From IMG/VR virus record IMGVR_UViG_3300039355_000083: a DNA stretch of 64,000 nucleotides, one strand, 5' to 3'. Within the stretch, counting starts at the first letter, position 1; each line of letters opens with the position of its first letter. Made by a program: the position numbers and the translations under genes. The DNA comes from a virus. Positions 5,026 to 24,051 of this stretch are shown here, piece after piece. A model generated the notes under the pieces. It worked only from the letters and a program-made list of their open reading frames with translations. It ran no database searches and was not told the DNA's origin.

Positions 5026-6306
5026 GTGAGAAAAATGAATGTCGATAGAAGTATTTTAGAAGATTATTTATCCAAAAAGTTTTTTAATATCTTAATTAAT
5101 AAGAGTGAAGAACTAGAAATTTACAATTATGCATATGAGAAATATAATTATCCAAAAGGCATTTTTTCAGATTTTCTATCTAGTAGAAAGAGTATTGAAG
5201 AAGCAAATGATTATACACTTTTTGTAATTGCAGATAGTATATTAAATGCCACTAAAAAAGATTATCGCAAAAAGTTATCTGACTTTTTTACAGACAGAGA
5301 AATAAGTAAATATAGTGGGATGCGATACGAAGAACCAAATAAAATTGAATTCCCGTTGGTGTTCAATATGATTCAGGTAAGCGATGATCAATGGATAGGA
5401 TCTTTAAATGTAGATGCATTTTGCGCTCTGCAAGAATCAGGATTAATTAACTATAATCCTGTCACACAACGTGCCATGACTAAAGTAACACGAGATAATA
5501 ATGAGCTATATCGTATTACATTGAATAAGAATGCAGTAAAAGAAATTACGGCAGATATGTTGGAACATATTTATGTTCCGGATACAATCACTTTGAATAT
5601 CCCGAAAGATGATGTATACGCAGATTTTCATTATGATGAGCAATCACGTCAGCTTATTATTCATTCTTTAGAGGCATTTGATATAAACGATGGATATCAT
5701 AGATATGTATCAATGTTCCAGGCCAGAAGTAAAAATCCAAATTTTAACTATCCAATGGAGCTGAGAATTACAAACTTTGACATTGATAAATCTCGCCGTA
5801 TGATATATCAGTATGACCAGAAAACTAAAATGAGCAAACAGTTAAGCGACACATATAACTCATATGCAGCTCAGAATAAAGTGGTCCAGCGTATTAATGA
5901 AAGCAGTATGTGTAATTTGCAAGGGGAAATAAAAATAGGCGGGCTTATTGATTCAACAACTCTGGCAGAATGTATTAAGAGATTATATTTCAGTAAAAGG
6001 CAAAGTGATTCTCCTGAGCAACGAAAAGAAATCATTAGAGTATCAAAGGAATTTATCGAAGATCTTAATATGCTTACAGAAGAAGATGACAAGTATCTTG
6101 AAAAAGAATATTCAAAGAAAGAAATTATAATTCTTACGATCTTGTTTCATTATTATGATGGAAAAAATAAAATATCAATGATAGAGAACTATAAGCGTTT
6201 TCTTATTGATGATGCGGAACGTGAGGAAAAAATAATATATGATTTTTCGAGAAACTTTAATAGGATAAGGAAAAGATTAATTCCTTTTTTAGAGGAGAGA
6301 ATGTAA
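5026..6306 (+). CDS. DGQHR-domain (DndB-like, ParB/Srx-fold) protein
   Basis: 426 aa carrying a 'QR' motif ('NPVTQRAM') followed by 'NDGYHRY', which resembles the DGQHR signature of DndB-like ParB-fold proteins. Confidence 0.45.
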   Translation: MRKMNVDRSILEDYLSKKFFNILINKSEELEIYNYAYEKYNYPKGIFSDFLSSRKSIEEANDYTLFVIADSILNATKKDYRKKLSDFFTDREISKYSGMRYEEPNKIEFPLVFNMIQVSDDQWIGSLNVDAFCALQESGLINYNPVTQRAMTKVTRDNNELYRITLNKNAVKEITADMLEHIYVPDTITLNIPKDDVYADFHYDEQSRQLIIHSLEAFDINDGYHRYVSMFQARSKNPNFNYPMELRITNFDIDKSRRMIYQYDQKTKMSKQLSDTYNSYAAQNKVVQRINESSMCNLQGEIKIGGLIDSTTLAECIKRLYFSKRQSDSPEQRKEIIRVSKEFIEDLNMLTEEDDKYLEKEYSKKEIIILTILFHYYDGKNKISMIENYKRFLIDDAEREEKIIYDFSRNFNRIRKRLIPFLEERM

Positions 6307-7218
6307 ATGTATAACGAAGATAGAAAACAAAGGTTTTACGAATTTAAGTTAAAAACTGTTGCAAGCGTTACTCCTCTTGTACCTAGATTTAAGAGAGTTG
6401 CGCCGTTTGAACATATGTATCAAAAGGATTTATGTGACTTTAATTTAAATGAGATTACAGAAATGTATAAGTTGTTCAAATTTACAACATTAGAGTCTAT
6501 TATTGTAGTAAATAATACTCTTACACAATATACGGACTGGTGTGTTAATGAGAATTTAGTGTTAAATGGACAAAATATCTATGCAACTATCACACCTGAT
6601 ATGCTGGCAGCACTATTAAATAAGACATTGTTAAATCATCAGATTGTATCAAGAGATACAATTTTAACATGGATCGAAGCATTAAAGAATCCTAGAGATC
6701 GATTTATGATTCTGAGCATTTTTGAATATGGCAAGTCTAAAGATTTTGAAGACACGATTAGAGCAAAACTTGATGATATCGACGTAGAAAATCATACAAT
6801 GAAATTGTATTCCGGAAGAGTTGTAAATGTAAGTGAAGCATTAATTTTAACTGCACAAAAGAGCAATATGACAATGGAATTAACATATCCATATGGAACT
6901 AAATCCAAACTTATGGACGATGGAACCATTATAAAAAGATCTCATATTGTAAAAGATGATCCGCATTGTCTTGGAAGGCAAATGTATAATTCATTAGCGG
7001 CAGCATTGAAGTCTATAGATGTATCATATATGACTGCTGAAAAAATTAACATTTCCGGACAAATTCATATGACAAATGAATTAATCCGGAAGTATAATTC
7101 AAATAAAAACAAGATTTTATATGATGTTGAAACTCGGTCTATGATTGAACACCAATATGGAATTAAGATTAATAGATCTTCATATTTTCTTAAAAAATAT
7201 GGTGACTATTTAATATAG
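6307..7218 (+). CDS. hypothetical protein
   Basis: 303 aa, start overlapping the previous stop (TAAATG); no motif recognised. Confidence 0.45.
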   Translation: MYNEDRKQRFYEFKLKTVASVTPLVPRFKRVAPFEHMYQKDLCDFNLNEITEMYKLFKFTTLESIIVVNNTLTQYTDWCVNENLVLNGQNIYATITPDMLAALLNKTLLNHQIVSRDTILTWIEALKNPRDRFMILSIFEYGKSKDFEDTIRAKLDDIDVENHTMKLYSGRVVNVSEALILTAQKSNMTMELTYPYGTKSKLMDDGTIIKRSHIVKDDPHCLGRQMYNSLAAALKSIDVSYMTAEKINISGQIHMTNELIRKYNSNKNKILYDVETRSMIEHQYGIKINRSSYFLKKYGDYLI

Positions 7219-7626: not shown

Positions 7627-7650
7627 TTATACATAATACAGGAGGAAAAA

Positions 7651-8802
7651 ATGAACAAGATTGAAGAAATGAAAGCATTGGTTGAAAAACTTAATCAGTA
7701 CCGAGATGCTTATTATAATAATGCAGAGAGTATTGTTACGGATCATCAGTATGATGATCTGTGTGATCAGTTGGAAAAAATGGAAAAAGAAACAGGAATT
7801 ATTTTAAGTAATTCTCCAGTCCATAGTGTTGGATATGAAGTAAAAAGTAAATTAGAGAAAATTGAGCATTCACATTTAATGATGTCTCTTGATAAAACTA
7901 AAGATGTGAATATGCTTCGAAAATTTATTGGTGATAAAGATTCTTTGCTAATGTGTAAGATGGATGGATTGACAATTCTTTTGACGTATGAAGATGGAGA
8001 GCTGATCCAGGCTGAAACTCGCGGAAACGGCGTCACAGGAGAAATTATTACTCACAATGCAAAGGCGTTCGAAAATATTCCTATGCATATTAATCAGAAA
8101 GGCCACGTTGAAATCGAAGGAGAAGCTATTATTACATATACAGATTTTGAGAAAATTAATAATTTAATTAAACACGAAGAAGATAGATATAAGAATCCGC
8201 GAAATCTTGCTTCAGGATCAGTCAGACAGTTAGATAGTAAGGTAGCAGCCAAACGTCATGTTCGTTTTATAGTATGGAAAGTACCTGCCGGTATGGATGA
8301 ACTACCTTTAATGTCAGCAAGATTTGAAAAAGCAAGAGAACTTGGATTTGATATTGTACCTTATATTCGTGTATATAAAGAAAATCAGAATCTTGAAGAG
8401 CTTATTAATCTGTTAAAGGAAAAGGCAGCATACTTATCTTATCCAATTGATGGGCTTGTTGCTGCATATAATGATATCGCTTATGGATTATCACTTGGAG
8501 TCACAGATAAGTATCCACGTCACTCTCTGGCATACAAGTTTTATAATGAAGAATATATTACGACACTTATTAATATTGAATGGCAAGTTGGTAAAACCGG
8601 AATTATTTCTCCGATAGCCGTATTTGAACCTATCGAAATAGAAGGAAGTATTATAACAAAAGCTAGTTTATTTAATCTTTCTATATTAAAAGAAAAATTG
8701 GGGCATCCTTATGTTGGACAAAAATTATGGATAATTAAAGCAAACCAAGTAATTCCATATATTACAAAAGCAGAAATGGTGGATGATAAATGGATAATAT
8801 AA
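7651..8802 (+). CDS. ligA: NAD-dependent DNA ligase, N-terminal fragment (Ia + adenylation + OB domains)
   Basis: Adenylation motif 'CKMDGL' (KxDG) and a LigA-like N-terminus 'LNQYRDAYYNNAESIVTDHQYDDL'. The ORF ends at the expected OB/Zn-finger domain boundary. Confidence 0.8.
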   Translation: MNKIEEMKALVEKLNQYRDAYYNNAESIVTDHQYDDLCDQLEKMEKETGIILSNSPVHSVGYEVKSKLEKIEHSHLMMSLDKTKDVNMLRKFIGDKDSLLMCKMDGLTILLTYEDGELIQAETRGNGVTGEIITHNAKAFENIPMHINQKGHVEIEGEAIITYTDFEKINNLIKHEEDRYKNPRNLASGSVRQLDSKVAAKRHVRFIVWKVPAGMDELPLMSARFEKARELGFDIVPYIRVYKENQNLEELINLLKEKAAYLSYPIDGLVAAYNDIAYGLSLGVTDKYPRHSLAYKFYNEEYITTLINIEWQVGKTGIISPIAVFEPIEIEGSIITKASLFNLSILKEKLGHPYVGQKLWIIKANQVIPYITKAEMVDDKWII

Positions 8803-9350
8803 AAATAGAAATATGGAAAGATATAATAGGATATGAGGGGTATTATCAAATAAGTAATTTAGGTAATGTTAAAAGTTTGAATAGAATTGTAAAAAATAAA
8901 AATGGTTATAGAAATACTGGCGAAAGATTATTAAAAATTTATTTACCTAAAGATAGTCAGCATTATCCATTTGTTATTTTATGCAAGAATGGAAAAACTG
9001 AAAACAAATTAATACATCGTTTAGTAGCCACAGCATTTGTAACTAATGACAATCCTATACATAAAACACAGGTAAATCATATAGATGAAAATAAAATGAA
9101 TAATAGTTCTGATAATTTAGAATGGTGTACTCCTAAATATAATGCAGAATATGGAACAAGAATAGAACGTACTAAAAAATCTACAACAAATAATCAATCG
9201 TGGAAGCGCGTTTTATGCGAAGAAACAGGTAAGACATACAGGTCTATTCGTTCAGCGTCTATGGATACAGGTGATTGCGAACACACCATTGCAAGAATGT
9301 GTAACGGATTAAAAACTAAAAATCTAAAATACCATTGGAGGTATGTATAA
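8790..9350 (+). CDS. HNH homing endonuclease (NUMOD4 + HNH_3 type)
   Basis: N-terminal 'WKDIIGYEGYYQISNLGNVKS' (NUMOD4-like) and 'HRLVA...VNHIDENKMNNSSDNLEWCT' (HNH). It overlaps the ligA N-fragment stop and the C-fragment start in different frames. Confidence 0.75.
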   Translation: MDNIKIEIWKDIIGYEGYYQISNLGNVKSLNRIVKNKNGYRNTGERLLKIYLPKDSQHYPFVILCKNGKTENKLIHRLVATAFVTNDNPIHKTQVNHIDENKMNNSSDNLEWCTPKYNAEYGTRIERTKKSTTNNQSWKRVLCEETGKTYRSIRSASMDTGDCEHTIARMCNGLKTKNLKYHWRYV

Positions 9351-10222
9351 TGAACAATATAAAATTTATTCAAATCCCTGAAGTATGCCCGATTTGTGGT
9401 AAGCCGGTGTCTGTTGTGAAAGAAAATGATTCTGAAGTATTGATGTGCATGAATGCTGGATGCAAAGGCAAGCTTCTGGGTGAATTAAATGCTTTTGTAG
9501 GGAAAAAGGCCCATGATATTAATGGATTATCTGAGGCCACATTGCAGCTATTGATTGATACTGGGCTTGTGGCATCACCAATTGATCTGTATTATTTGAA
9601 GGATCATTCTACAGAATTGTCCAGATTGCCTAGAATGGGAACAAAGAAAATTGCGAATATTTTAGATTCTATTGAGTCTAGTAGGAATACCACCATAGAA
9701 AAATTTATTGTAGGATTAAATATTCCGTTAATTGGTGGTAGAGCTGCAAAGGATATTGCTAGATATGAAGAAATAAGAACTAGGGAATCAGGAATACTCT
9801 ATCCATTTGAAACTTTTATTAAAGATGCTGCTTCTGATTTTAATTTTACCTGTATTGAAGGATTAGGGACGGAGCGAAATATTTCTATCCATAGATATTT
9901 TAAGGAAAATTATGATTACGTTATTGCTTTGGCAGAACAGTTCATATTTTCGAAACTTAATAATGATAAAATATCTTCTGAAAGCGATTCATTGTCCGGA
10001 AAGAAATTCTGTATCACTGGGAAGTTACATATTTTTGCTAACCGGGATGAACTTGTGGCGGATATAGAATCAAAAGGAGGGAAAGTTGTGTCCGGAGTTA
10101 CAAAGGCAACTGATTATCTAATTACCAATGATAAAAACAGTGGATCTAGTAAAAATAAGAAAGCTTCTGAGTTGAATATTCCTATTATCAGTGAAGAAGA
10201 ATACAAAAACAAATTAAATTAA
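9350..10222 (+). CDS. ligA: NAD-dependent DNA ligase, C-terminal fragment (Zn finger + HhH + BRCT)
   Basis: Cys4 Zn finger 'CPICGKP...CMNAGCKGK', helix-hairpin-helix region and BRCT-like 'GKKFCITGKL'. ATG at 9350 overlaps the HNH stop (TAATG) and follows RBS GGAGG. Confidence 0.75.
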   Translation: MNNIKFIQIPEVCPICGKPVSVVKENDSEVLMCMNAGCKGKLLGELNAFVGKKAHDINGLSEATLQLLIDTGLVASPIDLYYLKDHSTELSRLPRMGTKKIANILDSIESSRNTTIEKFIVGLNIPLIGGRAAKDIARYEEIRTRESGILYPFETFIKDAASDFNFTCIEGLGTERNISIHRYFKENYDYVIALAEQFIFSKLNNDKISSESDSLSGKKFCITGKLHIFANRDELVADIESKGGKVVSGVTKATDYLITNDKNSGSSKNKKASELNIPIISEEEYKNKLN

Positions 10223-10260
10223 CTTTTGCTATTGACAAATGCAAATAATGGTGATATAGT
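10210..10260 (+). promoter_or_regulatory. sigma-A/sigma-70-type promoter with upstream AT-rich UP-like box
   Basis: AAATTAAATTAACTTTTGC then TTGACA (10232-10237), a 17-nt spacer and TATAGT (10255-10260). Nearly identical to the cassettes at 20294 and 39131. Confidence 0.6.
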
Positions 10261-10308
10261 TGACCTATCAAAACAAATTAGATTAACTCAATCAGAAAGG
10301 CATGAACA

Positions 10309-10941
10309 ATGATATGTTACTATTTAAAAGGGAAAAATGGAGAGTACATCGCAAGAGATTCAACAGGAAGAATCAAATTAGTATCTGATCTTGCTGATGC
10401 ACTCTTGGTTCCTGAAATTGAAAAGAAAAAGATTAAGGCAATTCAAGCAAATAATATTCCAGACGTATTAAAAAAATTTGGACCATATGAAATTTGTGAA
10501 ACCGATTATAATGGAGTTGAAGCAATTACAACAGATGATATAGTTGGTGAAATTATCGGTAGTATAAATGAATTTTCAAGTAAGATGAATGAAATTACTG
10601 ATTATTCAAAAGAACTTAATTCTATTATTTCATATACTGATTTACAAATTTCAGATATTTTGCATTATATTGAATTTCATAAGTTTTCTGCGGCAGAAGG
10701 ATATAAATTATGCAAAAAGCTGCAAGAGATTTGTGATAGACGAAGAGAAGCTAAGAATAAGATGCAAATTATAAATACAATGAAAATTCAATCATGTGCG
10801 AGCGTTTTATCTGGAAGTGCTACTAAAAGAATAGAAAAAATTGTGCCAGATAAAAAGTATACTCCAAGAGTATTTGATGAATTGTTCAAAAAGAATCAGT
10901 CTCGAATAAGAAAAGAAAAATCAGTGAAAATAAAAATTTAA
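10309..10941 (+). CDS. hypothetical protein
   Basis: 210 aa ORF downstream of the 10232 promoter. Confidence 0.5.
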   Translation: MICYYLKGKNGEYIARDSTGRIKLVSDLADALLVPEIEKKKIKAIQANNIPDVLKKFGPYEICETDYNGVEAITTDDIVGEIIGSINEFSSKMNEITDYSKELNSIISYTDLQISDILHYIEFHKFSAAEGYKLCKKLQEICDRRREAKNKMQIINTMKIQSCASVLSGSATKRIEKIVPDKKYTPRVFDELFKKNQSRIRKEKSVKIKI

Positions 10942-10964: not shown

Positions 10965-13031
10965 ATGTTTAGAGATTTTGTAAAGGCAATCCAGAAAAAT
11001 TTACAGCAGATGTCTAAAGATTCTTCAAGATTATTCACAGTAAATGTGGACACCGAGGAGCTTTATAATTTATATCTGGATTCGTTTCCGGCAGGTACAA
11101 ATGAAATTTACAGAGAAAGAAGAGAATATGACTGCAGTTGCTGTAGACATTTTATCAGAGACGTTGGTAACGTTGTATCTATTAAAAATGGTGAGTTACA
11201 TACCATTTGGGGAATTAATCCAGTATCAGATGATAAATATAATGTAGTCGCAGCTGCGCTTGATGCCTATGTAAAACAGAAAGCGGTATCAGGGGTATTC
11301 CTCAAAAAAGAGAAACGAATTGGTACTCATGAAAATAGAGAAATGCTCCCGACAGGAAAAATTAATAAATACGAGCATTTCTTCGTAGATCTGCCAGAAA
11401 TTTGTATCTTTAAGGAATGTTATGGACATACACTTGAAGGTGATTTAAGTCAATTCAGAGATGTCCGTAATGTATTTAAACGTTCTCTTGATGAAATTAG
11501 TAAAGAAGCTGTAGATACTGTACTTGAACTGATTGCTCAAAATTCTTTATATAAAGGTGCCGAATGGAAAAAGCAACTTACTGAATTTAAGAATTATCAG
11601 AAAGAATATGGAAAGCTTACGGATAAACAGAAAGAACTTTGGATCTGGGAAAAGTCAATTTCTGCAGGTGCCGTTATCGGTAAGATTCGTAACCATAGCA
11701 TAGGAACATTGCTGGTGAATATTTCCGAAGGAATGGATCTTGACCTTGCCGTTAGAAAATATGAGCAGATTGTAGCCCCTGTAAATTATAAACGTCCAAA
11801 GGCAATTTTTACAAAGAAGATGCTTGAAAATGCAAAGAAGACTATTACAGAACTTGGTTATATGGATTCATTACAGAGAAGATTTGCTACCTTGGATGAT
11901 ATCACAGTGAACAATATACTTTTCTCTAATAAAGACGCAGCAAAGAGAATTACCGGCGCTATGGATTTGTTTGATGAAATGGAACAGGATGTTGCAATTG
12001 ATCCAAAACGATTCTCTAAGGTAGAGGAAATAAGTGCAGAAGATTTTATTAAGAATGTTTTGCCAGTGGCAAAGGAACTGGAAGTATACCTGGAGAATAA
12101 ACATATTCAAAATATGGTATCTTTGATTGCTCCAGAAGTTGCTGATGCGAAAACAATGTTCAAATGGAACAATGGAATGTCTTGGGCGTATACCGGTAAT
12201 ATTACAGATTCAGATATCAAAGAAAATGTAAAAGCTGCTGGTGGTTCAGTCACAGGCATTGTAAGATTTTCTATTCAATGGAATGACAAAGATGGAAAAG
12301 ATAATTCTGACCTTGACGCACATTGTATTGAACCAAAACGTGGAGAGCATATTTATTTTGGTCACAAAAAAGCACGATCCGGTGGAGAATTGGATATTGA
12401 TATTACTCAGCCAGTTGATCAGTGCTGGAATAGTAATGGAGTTGCCGTTGAAAATATTACATTTCCATCTAAAGAACGCATGATTCCTGGTACATATAAG
12501 TTTTTTGTACATCAGTTCGCATACAGAGGATCTCAGGGATTTAAAGCCGAAATCGAAGTAAATGGAGAAATTCATTCTTATGAATATAATACTCCAGTAC
12601 GTGGCGATGTAGATGTTGCAGAAGTAATTCTTGATCAGGCAGGTAATTTTAAAATTGTGGACAAACTTCCAGGAAATTGTTCTATGATCAGTAAAGATGT
12701 ATGGGGAATTAAAACTCTGCAGTTTACACCGGTATCTGTTGTATGCTACTCACCAAACTACTGGGATGAACAGAAGGGAATTGGTCATCAGCACTTATTC
12801 TTTATGCTGAAGGACTGCATCAATCCAGAAGAGCCGAATGGATATTATAATGAATTCTTGAAACCGGAACTTGAGCAGCATCGAAGAGTATTTGAAGCGC
12901 TTGGAGCGAAGGCACATGTAAAAGATATTGATGATCAGCTTTCTGGAGTAGGATTCTCCCTTACAAAGAGAAATGATTTGATTATTAAGGTAAAGGGTGC
13001 TACAGAGCGAGTATTAAAAATCAAATTCTAA
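10965..13031 (+). CDS. large hypothetical protein (688 aa)
   Basis: Long uninterrupted ORF with RBS AAGGAGATAA and an N-terminal Cys cluster 'DCSCCRHF'. No family recognised by eye. Confidence 0.55.
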   Translation: MFRDFVKAIQKNLQQMSKDSSRLFTVNVDTEELYNLYLDSFPAGTNEIYRERREYDCSCCRHFIRDVGNVVSIKNGELHTIWGINPVSDDKYNVVAAALDAYVKQKAVSGVFLKKEKRIGTHENREMLPTGKINKYEHFFVDLPEICIFKECYGHTLEGDLSQFRDVRNVFKRSLDEISKEAVDTVLELIAQNSLYKGAEWKKQLTEFKNYQKEYGKLTDKQKELWIWEKSISAGAVIGKIRNHSIGTLLVNISEGMDLDLAVRKYEQIVAPVNYKRPKAIFTKKMLENAKKTITELGYMDSLQRRFATLDDITVNNILFSNKDAAKRITGAMDLFDEMEQDVAIDPKRFSKVEEISAEDFIKNVLPVAKELEVYLENKHIQNMVSLIAPEVADAKTMFKWNNGMSWAYTGNITDSDIKENVKAAGGSVTGIVRFSIQWNDKDGKDNSDLDAHCIEPKRGEHIYFGHKKARSGGELDIDITQPVDQCWNSNGVAVENITFPSKERMIPGTYKFFVHQFAYRGSQGFKAEIEVNGEIHSYEYNTPVRGDVDVAEVILDQAGNFKIVDKLPGNCSMISKDVWGIKTLQFTPVSVVCYSPNYWDEQKGIGHQHLFFMLKDCINPEEPNGYYNEFLKPELEQHRRVFEALGAKAHVKDIDDQLSGVGFSLTKRNDLIIKVKGATERVLKIKF

Positions 13032-20438: not shown

Positions 20439-20523
20439 TAGCGGTATGATGAAATTGGCTAGACATAATAGACTTTGACTCTATTGAGCAGTAGCTCGTG
20501 TGGGTTCGAATCCCACTACCGCC
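20439..20523 (+). tRNA. type-II-shaped tRNA (long variable arm) with anticodon UUG
   Basis: Folds by hand: acceptor AGCGGTA/TACCGCC (A1.C72 mismatch), 3-bp D stem, anticodon stem ATAGA/TCTAT with loop CTTTGAC (U33, anticodon TTG, A37), 15-nt variable arm GAGC-AGTA-GCTC, T arm GTGGG-TTCGAAT-CCCAC. No encoded CCA. Confidence 0.5.
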
Positions 20524-20603
20524 GTTTGGCAAGTATTTTATACAAATATACTCCAGCCGAATTGCAGAGAAATATAATTTAATTATACAAAAAGGAGATA
20601 AAA

Positions 20604-21889: not shown

Positions 21890-21969
21890 GCGGATATGAC
21901 GGAACTGGCAGACGTAGAAGGCTCAAACCCTTCGGAGAAATCGTGTGGGTTCGAATCCCACTATCCGTA
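21890..21969 (+). tRNA. tRNA-Leu (anticodon CAA)
   Basis: Acceptor GCGGATA/TATCCGT, U8, 3-bp D stem ACG/CGT with a GG-containing D loop, anticodon stem GAAGG/CCTTC with loop CTCAAAC, 11-nt variable region, T arm GTGGG-TTCGAAT-CCCAC. Confidence 0.6.
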
Positions 21970-22412: not shown

Positions 22413-22486
22413 GGAAACTTAGCTCAGTTGGTTAGAGCAACCGGCTCATAACCGGTCGGTCCTGGGTTCGAGTCCCAGAGTTTCCA
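22413..22486 (+). tRNA. tRNA-Met (anticodon CAU; elongator Met or lysidine-modified Ile2)
   Basis: Canonical cloverleaf: acceptor GGAAACT/AGTTTCC, D arm GCTC-AGTTGGTTA-GAGC, anticodon stem ACCGG/CCGGT with loop CTCATAA, T arm CTGGG-TTCGAGT-CCCAG. Confidence 0.85.
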
Positions 22487-22570
22487 TTAAAAGAAAAATG
22501 AAAGGAGAGATATAAAATTCTTATAAATAATCCCGTAAAAATAATAATTTAAAATAAAGGAGATTAAATT

Positions 22571-23350
22571 ATGGCTATCGTTGGTGCAATCTTAGGTGAT
22601 ATTGCAGGTTCACAATATGAATTTGGTAGACCAATTGATTTAGATTGGAAGAATTGTAAGTTATTTACTGATAGATGTTATTTTACAGATGATACTGTAA
22701 TGACACTTGCTGCTAAATTAGCAATTATTAATAATAAATCTTTCACAGAATCATATAGAGAATGGGGAAGAAAATATCCAAATGCAGGATATGGAAACAA
22801 TTTTGAAACGTGGTTAAGATACGATGATAAAACTGCATACGGAAGTTTTGGTAATGGATCTGCAATGAGATGTTCTTATATTGGAGAACATTTTAACACA
22901 GAGAAAGAAGTTATTGAATGGGCTACTAAGTCTGCTGAGTGTACGCATAATCATCCAGAAGGAATTAAAGGGGCGGTTGTAACAGCAATGTGTATTTATA
23001 TGGCAAGAACAGGAGTTACTAAAGAGGAAATCTATGAATATGCGAAGAAGAATTATCCAAAAGACGATTATCAATATAGTGTTGAATATAAAATTGAAGA
23101 CTATAGAAAGATATATCAGTGGAATGAAACTTGTCAAGGAAGTGTACCTGTTGCAATTAGATGTTTTTTAGAGAGTGGTGATTATGAAAGTTTCTTGCGA
23201 AACGTGTTCTCATTAAAGTGTGATATGGATACGTTATGTGCTATAGGTGGTGGAATTGCGGAAGAATTTTATCACGGAACTGGATTAAACAATGATTACT
23301 TACTTGGACATTACCTGAATAGACAATTGTACAGGATTGTAGAAATGTGA
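22571..23350 (+). CDS. ADP-ribosylglycohydrolase (ARH/DraG family)
   Basis: N-terminal 'IVGAILGDIAGSQYEF' plus the 'TDDT' motif and 'GNGSAMR', all typical of the ADP-ribosyl-(arginine/dinitrogenase reductase) hydrolase fold. Confidence 0.7.
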   Translation: MAIVGAILGDIAGSQYEFGRPIDLDWKNCKLFTDRCYFTDDTVMTLAAKLAIINNKSFTESYREWGRKYPNAGYGNNFETWLRYDDKTAYGSFGNGSAMRCSYIGEHFNTEKEVIEWATKSAECTHNHPEGIKGAVVTAMCIYMARTGVTKEEIYEYAKKNYPKDDYQYSVEYKIEDYRKIYQWNETCQGSVPVAIRCFLESGDYESFLRNVFSLKCDMDTLCAIGGGIAEEFYHGTGLNNDYLLGHYLNRQLYRIVEM

Positions 23351-23544
23351 GGTTAGATATGAAATCTTATATAGGATCATTATTGATAGGAATACTATTA
23401 TCATTAATTTTTACAATTGGTATGTCTTTTTCAAGACTCGATATTCTTGATGATAGAAAGAGACTTGTTTTGGCTATCGGTGATTTTATTATTATGTGTA
23501 TATTATTTTCGTTGTTTATTACGGGAATGTTTTTAATAGGATAA
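23347..23544 (+). CDS. small membrane protein (2 TM)
   Basis: 65 aa hydrophobic ORF translationally coupled to the ARH gene. Confidence 0.4.
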   Translation: MRLDMKSYIGSLLIGILLSLIFTIGMSFSRLDILDDRKRLVLAIGDFIIMCILFSLFITGMFLIG

Positions 23545-23584
23545 TAAGTGATTCGATGGAATGTGAGATTCGAGAGGTGACAGA

Positions 23585-23806
23585 ATGAAAATTAAGAAAC
23601 TATTAATTGGATTGCTTGTATCGGGATTGGCATTTTCGTTTACTGGATGTGGTGACAAAGAGATAAATGACAATGGAGAAAAAGTTCAATCATTCGGTCA
23701 ATTTATTGAAATTAAGGAAATACAAATCGTATCAAGTAATGGGTTTAGTCGATATAGTCAATATTTTGTATATGATAAAACCACTAAAATTGTATATGTA
23801 GTATAA
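23585..23806 (+). CDS. small lipoprotein
   Basis: Signal peptide with lipobox 'FTGCGD'. An in-frame TAA is followed by 34 more sense codons (see findings). Confidence 0.5.
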   Translation: MKIKKLLIGLLVSGLAFSFTGCGDKEINDNGEKVQSFGQFIEIKEIQIVSSNGFSRYSQYFVYDKTTKIVYVV

Positions 23807-23981
23807 GGTTCAGACCGTTATGGTGGCATTGGTGGCATTACACCATATTACGTATTAGATGAAAATGGCAAACCAGAAATCGCAATCTATGGAGAAAATT
23901 ATAATGGATAAGGAGAAAGAATAAGTACACATAATCCTGTTGTGACTGCAGTACGACAGGTCATGCATGTAAAAAAAAAGA

Positions 23982-24051
23982 TGACATATAGTCTAACGGA
24001 AAGAACGTGGCTTTTTAAGCTGAAATATTGGTTCGAATCCAATTGTGTCAT
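23982..24051 (+). tRNA. degenerate tRNA-like element (possible tRNA-Lys UUU remnant)
   Basis: Good acceptor (TGACATA/TGTGTCA) and T arm (ATTGG-TTCGAAT-CCAAT), but the anticodon stem is weak (2 Watson-Crick + 2 wobble pairs) and the variable loop is 3 nt. The best loop reads TTTTTAA (anticodon TTT). Confidence 0.3.

Follow-up and report, generated by a model that had tools for sequence, protein, structure and literature searches.

A phage NAD-dependent DNA ligase gene split in two by a free-standing HNH homing endonuclease gene, and the case for a two-subunit enzyme

What becomes of a DNA ligase when a mobile gene comes to lie between two of its domains? This question is raised by positions 7,651 to 10,222 of a viral DNA stretch of 64,000 nucleotides (IMG/VR record IMGVR_UViG_3300039355_000083; hereafter the window, i.e., the whole stretch that was analysed), where an NAD-dependent DNA ligase (LigA) is encoded in two pieces, which we call ligN and ligC, with an HNH homing endonuclease gene (HEG) between them. 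The original prediction, made from the DNA letters, was that the ligase appears to be genuinely fragmented and expressed as two polypeptides. Our analysis leads us to consider it likely that the locus encodes a working ligase of two subunits that arose through a free-standing homing endonuclease, when this statement is taken as a whole. Within it, the production of two separate polypeptides, the association of LigN with LigC and the joint sealing of nicks are what we infer from the sequence and its relatives, as laid out below.

The three open reading frames (ORFs) of the locus are co-oriented on the + strand and each occupies a different frame, according to the ORF calls. The first, ligN (7651-8802; 383 amino acids, aa; exact protein DAZ10985.1), matches the Pfam models DNA_ligase_aden (PF01653, E=4e-57) and DNA_ligase_OB (PF03120, E=6e-17), with a weak match, below the cut-off, to Nlig-Ia (PF22745, E=1e-4). 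The last, ligC (9350-10222; 290 aa; exact protein DAZ10983.1), matches BRCT in Pfam (PF00533, E=3e-12) and the NAD ligase families phrog_3498/3869 in PHROGs (~1e-57), and PHROGs labels both outer ORFs as NAD-dependent DNA ligase. When aligned with solved structures, ligN corresponds to E. coli LigA residues 15-390 and ligC to residues 402-665. The LigA domain order is kept across the two ORFs, with domain Ia (~7651-7845), the nucleotidyltransferase (NTase) domain (~7846-8544) and the OB fold (~8560-8772) in ligN, and the Cys4 zinc finger (9386-9463; C13/C16/C33/C38), the HhH region (~9480-9985) and BRCT (9986-10198) in ligC. The sequence elements KMDG (with the nucleotidyltransferase lysine K103), TRGNG, EGEAI, NPRNLASGSVRQLD and AYKF of ligN all align with E. 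coli LigA, and domain Ia retains, by alignment, the counterparts of E. coli Y22, D32, Y35 and D36, which we take to be the tyrosine and aspartate residues that bind nicotinamide mononucleotide and give NAD+ specificity. The two halves tile intact ligases with nothing missing, as judged against the ligase of Clostridium phage c-st (649 aa, 46% identical) and 14 intact close relatives. The break lies in the linker between the OB fold and the zinc finger (OB|Zn linker): ligN ends (…KANQVIPYITKAEMVDDKWII) ~10 residues past the last OB strand, with the tail AEMVDDKWII and the stop codon at 8800-8802, and ligC starts (MNNIKFIQIPEVCPICG, with the head MNNIKFIQ) 7 residues before the zinc finger. The domain content of each half, the position of the break at the OB/zinc-finger boundary and the HNH gene overlapping both halves in other frames had all been described in the original prediction, and the Pfam, PHROGs and structure-based comparisons agree with it on each of these points; its proposed alignment to intact LigA likewise leaves no ligase segment unaccounted for.

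The gene between the halves (8790-9350; 186 aa; exact protein DAZ10984.1) is free-standing and encodes a protein with NUMOD4 (E=1e-13) and HNH_3 (E=1e-7) matches in Pfam, a match to the HNH endonuclease family phrog_59 in PHROGs (E=6.5e-43), similarity to the homing endonuclease I-HmuI (PDB 1u3e; E=1e-13 over residues 9-122), and a C-terminus reading ...KYHWRYV. Given these E-values, neither the ligase nor the endonuclease assignments can be attributed to chance. The start region of the HNH gene, ATGGATAATATAA, contains the ligN stop codon, and at its other end the sequence TAATG (9348-9352) includes one base common to the HNH stop and the ligC start. Translation signals read from the sequence accompany each gene, namely an AGGAGG Shine-Dalgarno sequence for ligN (7640-7645, + strand, 5 nt 5' of the ATG at 7651), a possible HNH ribosome-binding site, GGTGGA (8778-8783, + strand), and a GGAGG Shine-Dalgarno sequence for ligC (9337-9341, + strand, 8 nt 5' of the ATG at 9350), which lies within the 3' end of the HNH gene. 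A TTG at 9335, which is open and lacks a ribosome-binding site, was rejected as the ligC start; the ATG at 9350 was preferred, being preceded by GGAGG at a distance of 8 nt and in agreement with the public 290-aa calls. The three window proteins are in fact already public, under the names 'MAG TPA: DNA ligase / homing endonuclease / DNA ligase [Caudoviricetes sp.]'. Inside the ligN-HNH-ligC cluster, nothing resembling a terminator was found and promoter-like sites were not in excess; one transcript without an internal terminator would give three proteins, that is, LigN (Ia-NTase-OB), the endonuclease and LigC (Zn-HhH-BRCT). In the mechanism that we favor, an I-HmuI-like HNH homing gene would have inserted in the OB/zinc-finger linker of the ligase, its 5' end giving the upstream half a stop codon and its 3' end giving the downstream half a ribosome-binding site and an ATG, and LigN and LigC would be made separately via translational coupling. 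Downstream of ligC and upstream of the 210-aa gene that begins at 10309, there is a strong promoter-like site (10232-10260; TTGACA-17 nt-TATAGT, extended TG), which suggests that the cluster ends a transcription unit there.

HNH endonucleases of the I-HmuI family are often intron-encoded, and it must therefore be asked whether a full-length ligase could be restored by RNA splicing (a group I or group II intron), by protein splicing (an intein or split intein) or by translational bypass. The Rfam intron families gave no match in 8400-9800 even at E<=10, and the whole window, searched at the Rfam gathering score, yielded four tRNAs only and no intron. Further, the HNH ORF, which runs into both ligase halves, leaves only ~40 nt of the intervening DNA uncovered. 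With no match to an RNA core and only ~40 nt outside the HNH ORF to hold one, a group I or II intron was ruled out. An intein or split intein was ruled out on the size of the junction and on frame: the non-ligase residues there amount to ~10 after the OB fold and ~7 before the zinc finger (i.e., ~17), as opposed to an N-terminal intein part (Int-N) of ~100 aa and a C-terminal part (Int-C) of ~35 aa, and the reading frames differ. A translational bypass would have to span 560 nt, which is without precedent, and ligC has its own GGAGG and ATG. The original prediction's view that there is no room for an intron core and no intein signature is thus borne out, and we regard the restoration of a full-length ligase by any of these routes as extremely improbable.

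If the ligase is indeed in two pieces, how did it become so? A ligN protein search returned 383-aa split forms at 90-99% identity (clusters of 166, 80, 24 and 12 members) together with many intact ligases of 665-667 aa, at 85-88% overall identity and on phage contigs of 170-200 kb, and further short forms. The most informative comparison, with phages lacking the HNH insertion, is between the window (HEG+) and two near-isogenic loci that carry an intact 665-aa ligase (HEG-; L003 and L004), the flanks of which are 98-99% identical to those of the window (98% over 7 kb upstream). Relative to L003, the window differs at just 8 positions in 7651-8522; mismatches become dense from 8545, with ~55% identity from there up to the HNH gene, and the two are identical again from ~9427. 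The difference from the intact allele is, therefore, a cassette of ~880 nt (8545-9425, + strand), made up of a divergent OB tract (8545-8789), the HNH gene (561 nt) and the first ~25 ligC codons, and it brings the new stop and the new start. The same cassette recurs in other backgrounds. In comparison with the split allele L005, positions 8370-9560 are 99-100% identical and the neighbouring ligase DNA only ~83%, and the HNH gene with its flanks is 97% identical in L008 and L049, with a backbone identity of ~75%; that is, the cassette is 97-100% identical among backbones that are 75-90% identical. In translation, residues 296-372, which make up the OB tract, share 49% identity with P0009, the intact allele on the window's own backbone and 99% identical elsewhere, as opposed to 100% with L005 and 92% with L008, the backbones of which are 87% and 68% identical, respectively. 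L008 (split) and P0080 (intact) provide a second split/intact pair. One protein with a 98% match to the OB tract, P0167, was dismissed as an assembly chimera with a dihydroorotase-like N-terminus. The HhH-coding block at 9545-9990 is a separate mosaic, unrelated to the cassette, and is 62% identical to P0009 and 94% identical to the intact P0065 at the protein level.

The endonuclease is also confined to this site. Its exact protein is present on 172 contigs, and among all HNH copies at >=97% identity, which comprise 17 IMG/VR loci and one isolate genome, every copy sits at the same ligase site, with homologs of ~40% identity found elsewhere. A cassette shared among differing backbones, coupled to a single insertion site, is the signature of site-specific homing by a free-standing HEG with co-conversion of flanking DNA. 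Under this model, the HNH enzyme would cleave or nick endonuclease-free ligase alleles in co-infecting or recombining phages and be copied in by repair, and co-conversion would bring along ~250 nt of the donor's OB-coding DNA, together with ~75 nt from downstream of the element. The cassette ends within two conserved coding blocks, those of 'AYKF' (motif V) and of the zinc finger, where recombination would have had its endpoints, and these blocks plausibly act as homology arms. Because it is divergent, the co-converted tract probably also protects a carrier against its own enzyme.

Homing accounts for how a ligase may be split; it leaves the question of whether the halves remain useful. It could be that they do not, i.e., that a dispensable ligase gene was inactivated, that the host LigA substitutes for it, and that the two halves are pseudogenes too young to have decayed. 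However, all three ORFs are open in 17/17 split alleles, and a decaying pseudogene with frameshifts in relatives, which the original prediction had named as the contrary case, is thus not what these alleles present. Among the 16 split alleles on the window's backbone, segregating changes numbered 46 synonymous and 23 nonsynonymous in ligN, and 47 synonymous and 28 nonsynonymous in ligC; this ~2:1 synonymous excess, with nonsynonymous sites being ~3 times as many as synonymous sites, corresponds to a ratio of nonsynonymous to synonymous rates (omega, or dN/dS) of ~0.2 for the halves. Between divergent split lineages, dN/dS was 0.07-0.25 for ligN and 0.10-0.35 for ligC, and the adenylylation lysine with its KxDG motif, the NAD-site residues, the Cys4 cluster and the BRCT domain are kept in split alleles. 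By these measures, both ligase halves look selectively maintained.

Several observations weigh on the other side and need to be considered together. Part of the polymorphism, and perhaps much of it, could have originated in intact alleles and entered the split ones by recombination, and post-split selection is hence not cleanly isolated by the counts above. Among close alleles, the cassette, its OB tract included, hardly varies, a sign of recent spread, and the intact alleles appear to be commoner than the split ones, judging by cluster sizes. The HNH gene carries 2 synonymous and 6 nonsynonymous segregating changes among the same 16 alleles, a pattern compatible with relaxed constraint. The ligase may also be dispensable, given that disrupted alleles are known, that the host has its own LigA and that the phage is in the prophage state in at least one isolate. 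Specifically, two loci (L006 6187-9057 and L007 5223-8093, the relatives of window positions 8760-9370) have an element of the IS66 insertion sequence family at this OB|Zn linker, the ligase being otherwise of the intact type, with tnpA/tnpB/tnpC on the opposite strand and an 8-bp target duplication (ATTTCTCG), leaving ORFs of 373 aa and 294 aa. In a metagenomic contig (L014 4001-5197, the relative of 7651-10941), a deletion has taken out everything between ligase residue ~273 and the midpoint of the 210-aa gene that follows, and it creates a 398-aa fusion ORF (P0075); apparently, either the ligase can be lost or this contig is defective or chimeric. The IS66 insertions and this ligase-deleting variant thus represent disrupted ligases within the phage group. 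Finally, the position of E. coli motif IV K290, a lysine that matters for E. coli LigA, is occupied by alanine in the window ligase (8440-8470, ligN residues ~264-273, IDGLVAAYND) and across its clade. This position is non-basic in intact relatives too (DGLVFTY in c-st, DGLVALY in L002), and T5 has arginine there. Canonical activity is thus an assumption for the clade throughout, intact members included.

What argues further against the halves being pseudogenes is that the same break is found in much deeper lineages, where the split persists at only ~60% (N-terminal half) and 46-48% (C-terminal half) identity, with the dN/dS values given above. In L011, the backbone of which is ~60% identical, an N-terminal ORF of 382 aa, a NUMOD4/HNH ORF of 169 aa and a C-terminal ORF of 278 aa show the same overlaps, and the HNH protein, which ends in …YHWRYA, is 44% identical to the window enzyme. 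Two other loci (L012 1441-2028 and L051 4121-5623) have a GIY-YIG homing endonuclease (phrog_314, E=1.7e-29) in the same ligase linker; their C-terminal '…GG(Y/F)HW(R/E)Y' module is also that of the HNH enzymes, which implies that the nuclease domain has been swapped on a shared DNA-binding module. A single 500-aa ORF in L051 joins the endonuclease in frame to ligC. In L009, the HNH gene (6130-6530) is a pseudogene, with an internal deletion that removed the region of the catalytic histidine and a frameshift, but both ligase halves are open; its ligC start is probably a TTG located 9 nt past GGAGG. The arrangement of GGAGG and start codon of ligC is retained in L009, L011 and L012, i.e., the ribosome-binding site and start of ligC are conserved across lineages. 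Moreover, in an exhaustive representative search, the three closest full-length relatives of the window's OB tract (58-65% identical) are proteins of 370-379 aa that end right after the OB fold, and further N-fragments of 370-397 aa occur lower among the best 150 OB-tract matches. So many OB-ending N-fragments indicate that two-piece NAD ligases are common in phage sequence space and that the OB tract of the cassette came from that pool. Adding that a split enzyme of the T5 type is a solved two-chain complex (below), we think it unlikely that the split ligase is non-functional, and we favor the reading that it is a working two-subunit enzyme.

The closest precedent for such an enzyme is that of phage T5, in which the adjacent, co-oriented genes ligA (T5.116, 323 aa) and ligB (T5.117, 259 aa) divide the ligase in the same way, that is, Ia/NTase/OB vs. 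Zn/HhH/BRCT. T5 LigA ends 4 residues past the position aligned to window residue 373, and residue 3 of T5 LigB aligns with residue 7 of the window ligC, which places the T5 break within ~5 residues of the window break point. A T5-like two-chain ligase structure is deposited (PDB 9hu3/9i5i, with chains 'DNA ligase (NAD(+))' and 'DNA ligase subunit B'), and PHROGs keeps separate families for such halves (phrog_3359 and phrog_3498). In the literature on the structure of the T5 split ligase or on endonucleases in ligase genes, we found only a mention of T5 ligA/ligB at the annotation level (PMC3632103), and no paper for 9hu3. There are also clear differences between the two systems. The T5 genes have no endonuclease between them and are instead separated by a 200-bp spacer with promoters. 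The T5 proteins are only 28% and 26% identical to the window halves, the closest intact relatives of which are ligases of Firmicutes phages such as c-st (46%), and no intact sister allele is known for T5, whereas intact alleles with a 99% identical backbone exist for the window. Identities of 26-28% to T5 as opposed to 85-99% to the intact ligases of sister phages mean that the window split is independent of the T5 lineage. Hence, by analogy, we infer that the window ligase works like T5 LigA/LigB without being a member of that lineage. Specifically, a non-covalent two-subunit ligase would assemble on nicked DNA, with LigN responsible for adenylylation and catalysis and LigC serving as the DNA clamp. 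In T5-like phages, no recognisable endonuclease remnant was found between the ligase subunit genes, where a DprA-like gene or small unknown ORFs are present instead. For instance, in the T5-like Vibrio phage phi 3 (L054 1840-2412), the N-terminal part and subunit B are separated by a DprA-like gene (phrog_768, E=7e-39) together with a 73-aa ORF that carries the annotation 'ligase subunit A'. That is, the gap between T5-type ligase halves can hold unrelated genes.

Alternatively, both halves might be expressed and useful and yet act independently, with LigN as a minimal ligase or adenylyltransferase and LigC as a DNA-binding protein or BRCT scaffold, and with no assembly between them. N-terminal LigA fragments self-adenylylate and C-terminal fragments bind DNA alone, both of which fit this scenario, and purifying selection on the two halves does not by itself show that they interact. 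However, LigA cannot seal nicks without its Zn/HhH domains, in every lineage seen the halves lie next to each other in the same orientation with coupled translation, and a single structure entry contains both T5-like LigA and T5-like LigB. For these reasons, we view independent action of the halves as very unlikely, and continue with the reading that LigN and LigC would assemble into one enzyme.

Gene fracture by a homing endonuclease has a known counterpart in Aeromonas phage Aeh1, where, as here, a free-standing HNH-family gene splits a gene of DNA metabolism (nrdA-a/mobE/nrdA-b) without an intron or intein. Friedrich et al., in 2007, reportedly described Aeh1 nrdA as 'genes in pieces'. The split NrdA is still functional, and its short terminal tails derive from the insertion (Crona et al. 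2011, PMC3045599). Indeed, for HEG-driven gene fracture that leaves a working enzyme in the absence of an intron or intein, essentially one studied case is cited, namely Aeh1 nrdA (PMC10448857). The Aeh1 ribonucleotide reductase is broken in its active-site region and the window ligase in an inter-domain linker. Further, the tails of the window halves are very short (~10 and 7 residues) and resemble the native linker of other ligase lineages, which leaves a part for them in assembly hypothetical. Compared to Aeh1, the window system is sampled with many HEG+ and HEG- alleles and at several stages of endonuclease decay. A second related group is that of the fractured genes described by Dassa et al. 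2009 (PMC2677866), mostly from phages and including one phage DNA ligase, in which an N-terminal part, a free-standing homing endonuclease and a C-terminal part likewise lie in one locus. The invading element has been modelled there as the source of the stop codon and the initiator methionine (PMC2677866). In those genes, split inteins flank GIY-YIG or Vsr-like endonucleases, whereas the window HNH gene has none, and trans-splicing is thus not possible. Finally, the window enzyme resembles I-HmuI in its N-terminal NUMOD4 and HNH catalytic region, and both have a modular C-terminal DNA-binding part. I-HmuI is, however, encoded within a group I intron of the SPO1 DNA polymerase gene as opposed to being free-standing in a ligase gene, and the C-terminal module of the window enzyme (...YHWRYV) differs from that of I-HmuI and is common to the GIY-YIG enzymes at the same site.

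It is important to note what is and is not novel in these results. Ligases in two pieces, as in phage T5, have been described before, as have genes split by endonucleases, and no new principle or mechanism is involved. What is new is an independent origin of a T5-like LigA split with the responsible endonuclease still in place, together with near-isogenic intact alleles, a defined co-conversion tract that replaces most of the OB fold, and stages of endonuclease turnover at one site. The locus therefore offers a second system for HEG-driven gene fracture, rich in natural variants and involving an enzyme of practical interest. It could show how two-subunit NAD ligases of the T5 type originate, where LigA tolerates cutting (which is useful for engineering split ligases), and how far HEG co-conversion reshapes an essential domain. 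It is tempting to go one step further and view the mobile unit as a self-compensating module, which would travel with its own ~50%-divergent OB segment and new termini pre-adapted for LigN-LigC assembly, so that homing would fracture the ligase and keep the enzyme working in one step; the series from intact HNH through a swapped nuclease domain to a decayed HNH would then represent a route to endonuclease-free T5-type ligases. We put this combined view forward as speculative and, as it stands, doubtful.

As for the phage itself, the evidence points to an SPbeta-like phage or prophage of ~170-200 kb from gut Lachnospiraceae as the host of the locus. The conserved neighbourhood consists of an integrase, DndB, an MrpR/YopR-like recombinase, a 111-aa ORF, the ligase, the 210-aa ORF and DUF8224; in the window, the MrpR/YopR-like recombinase (6307-7218; PF22822, E=2e-16) lies upstream of the ligase and a 688-aa DUF8224-type protein (10965-13031) downstream. 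Synteny with YopQ/YopR of c-st is the basis for calling it an SPbeta-like large phage or prophage. Cluster members and loci carry such names as Anaerobutyricum soehngenii and Ruminococcus sp. AM36-2AA; in the latter isolate, the split allele lies inside a 499-kb contig (QTYB01000001.1, ~342-349 kb), which means that the element can be a prophage. Nucleotide searches of the phage collection with the ligase region and with the first 25 kb of the window returned only HNH fragments and one unrelated match of 1.4 kb, and no close deposited genome there. The four tRNA genes of the window (Rfam RF00005, 43-74 bits) are on the + strand at 20440-20524, 21890-21969, 22413-22486 and 23982-24051, and positions 22518-23921, which gave the only near match of the first 25 kb in the phage collection, are 89% identical to a 176-kb human-faecal phage record (MT835469.1).

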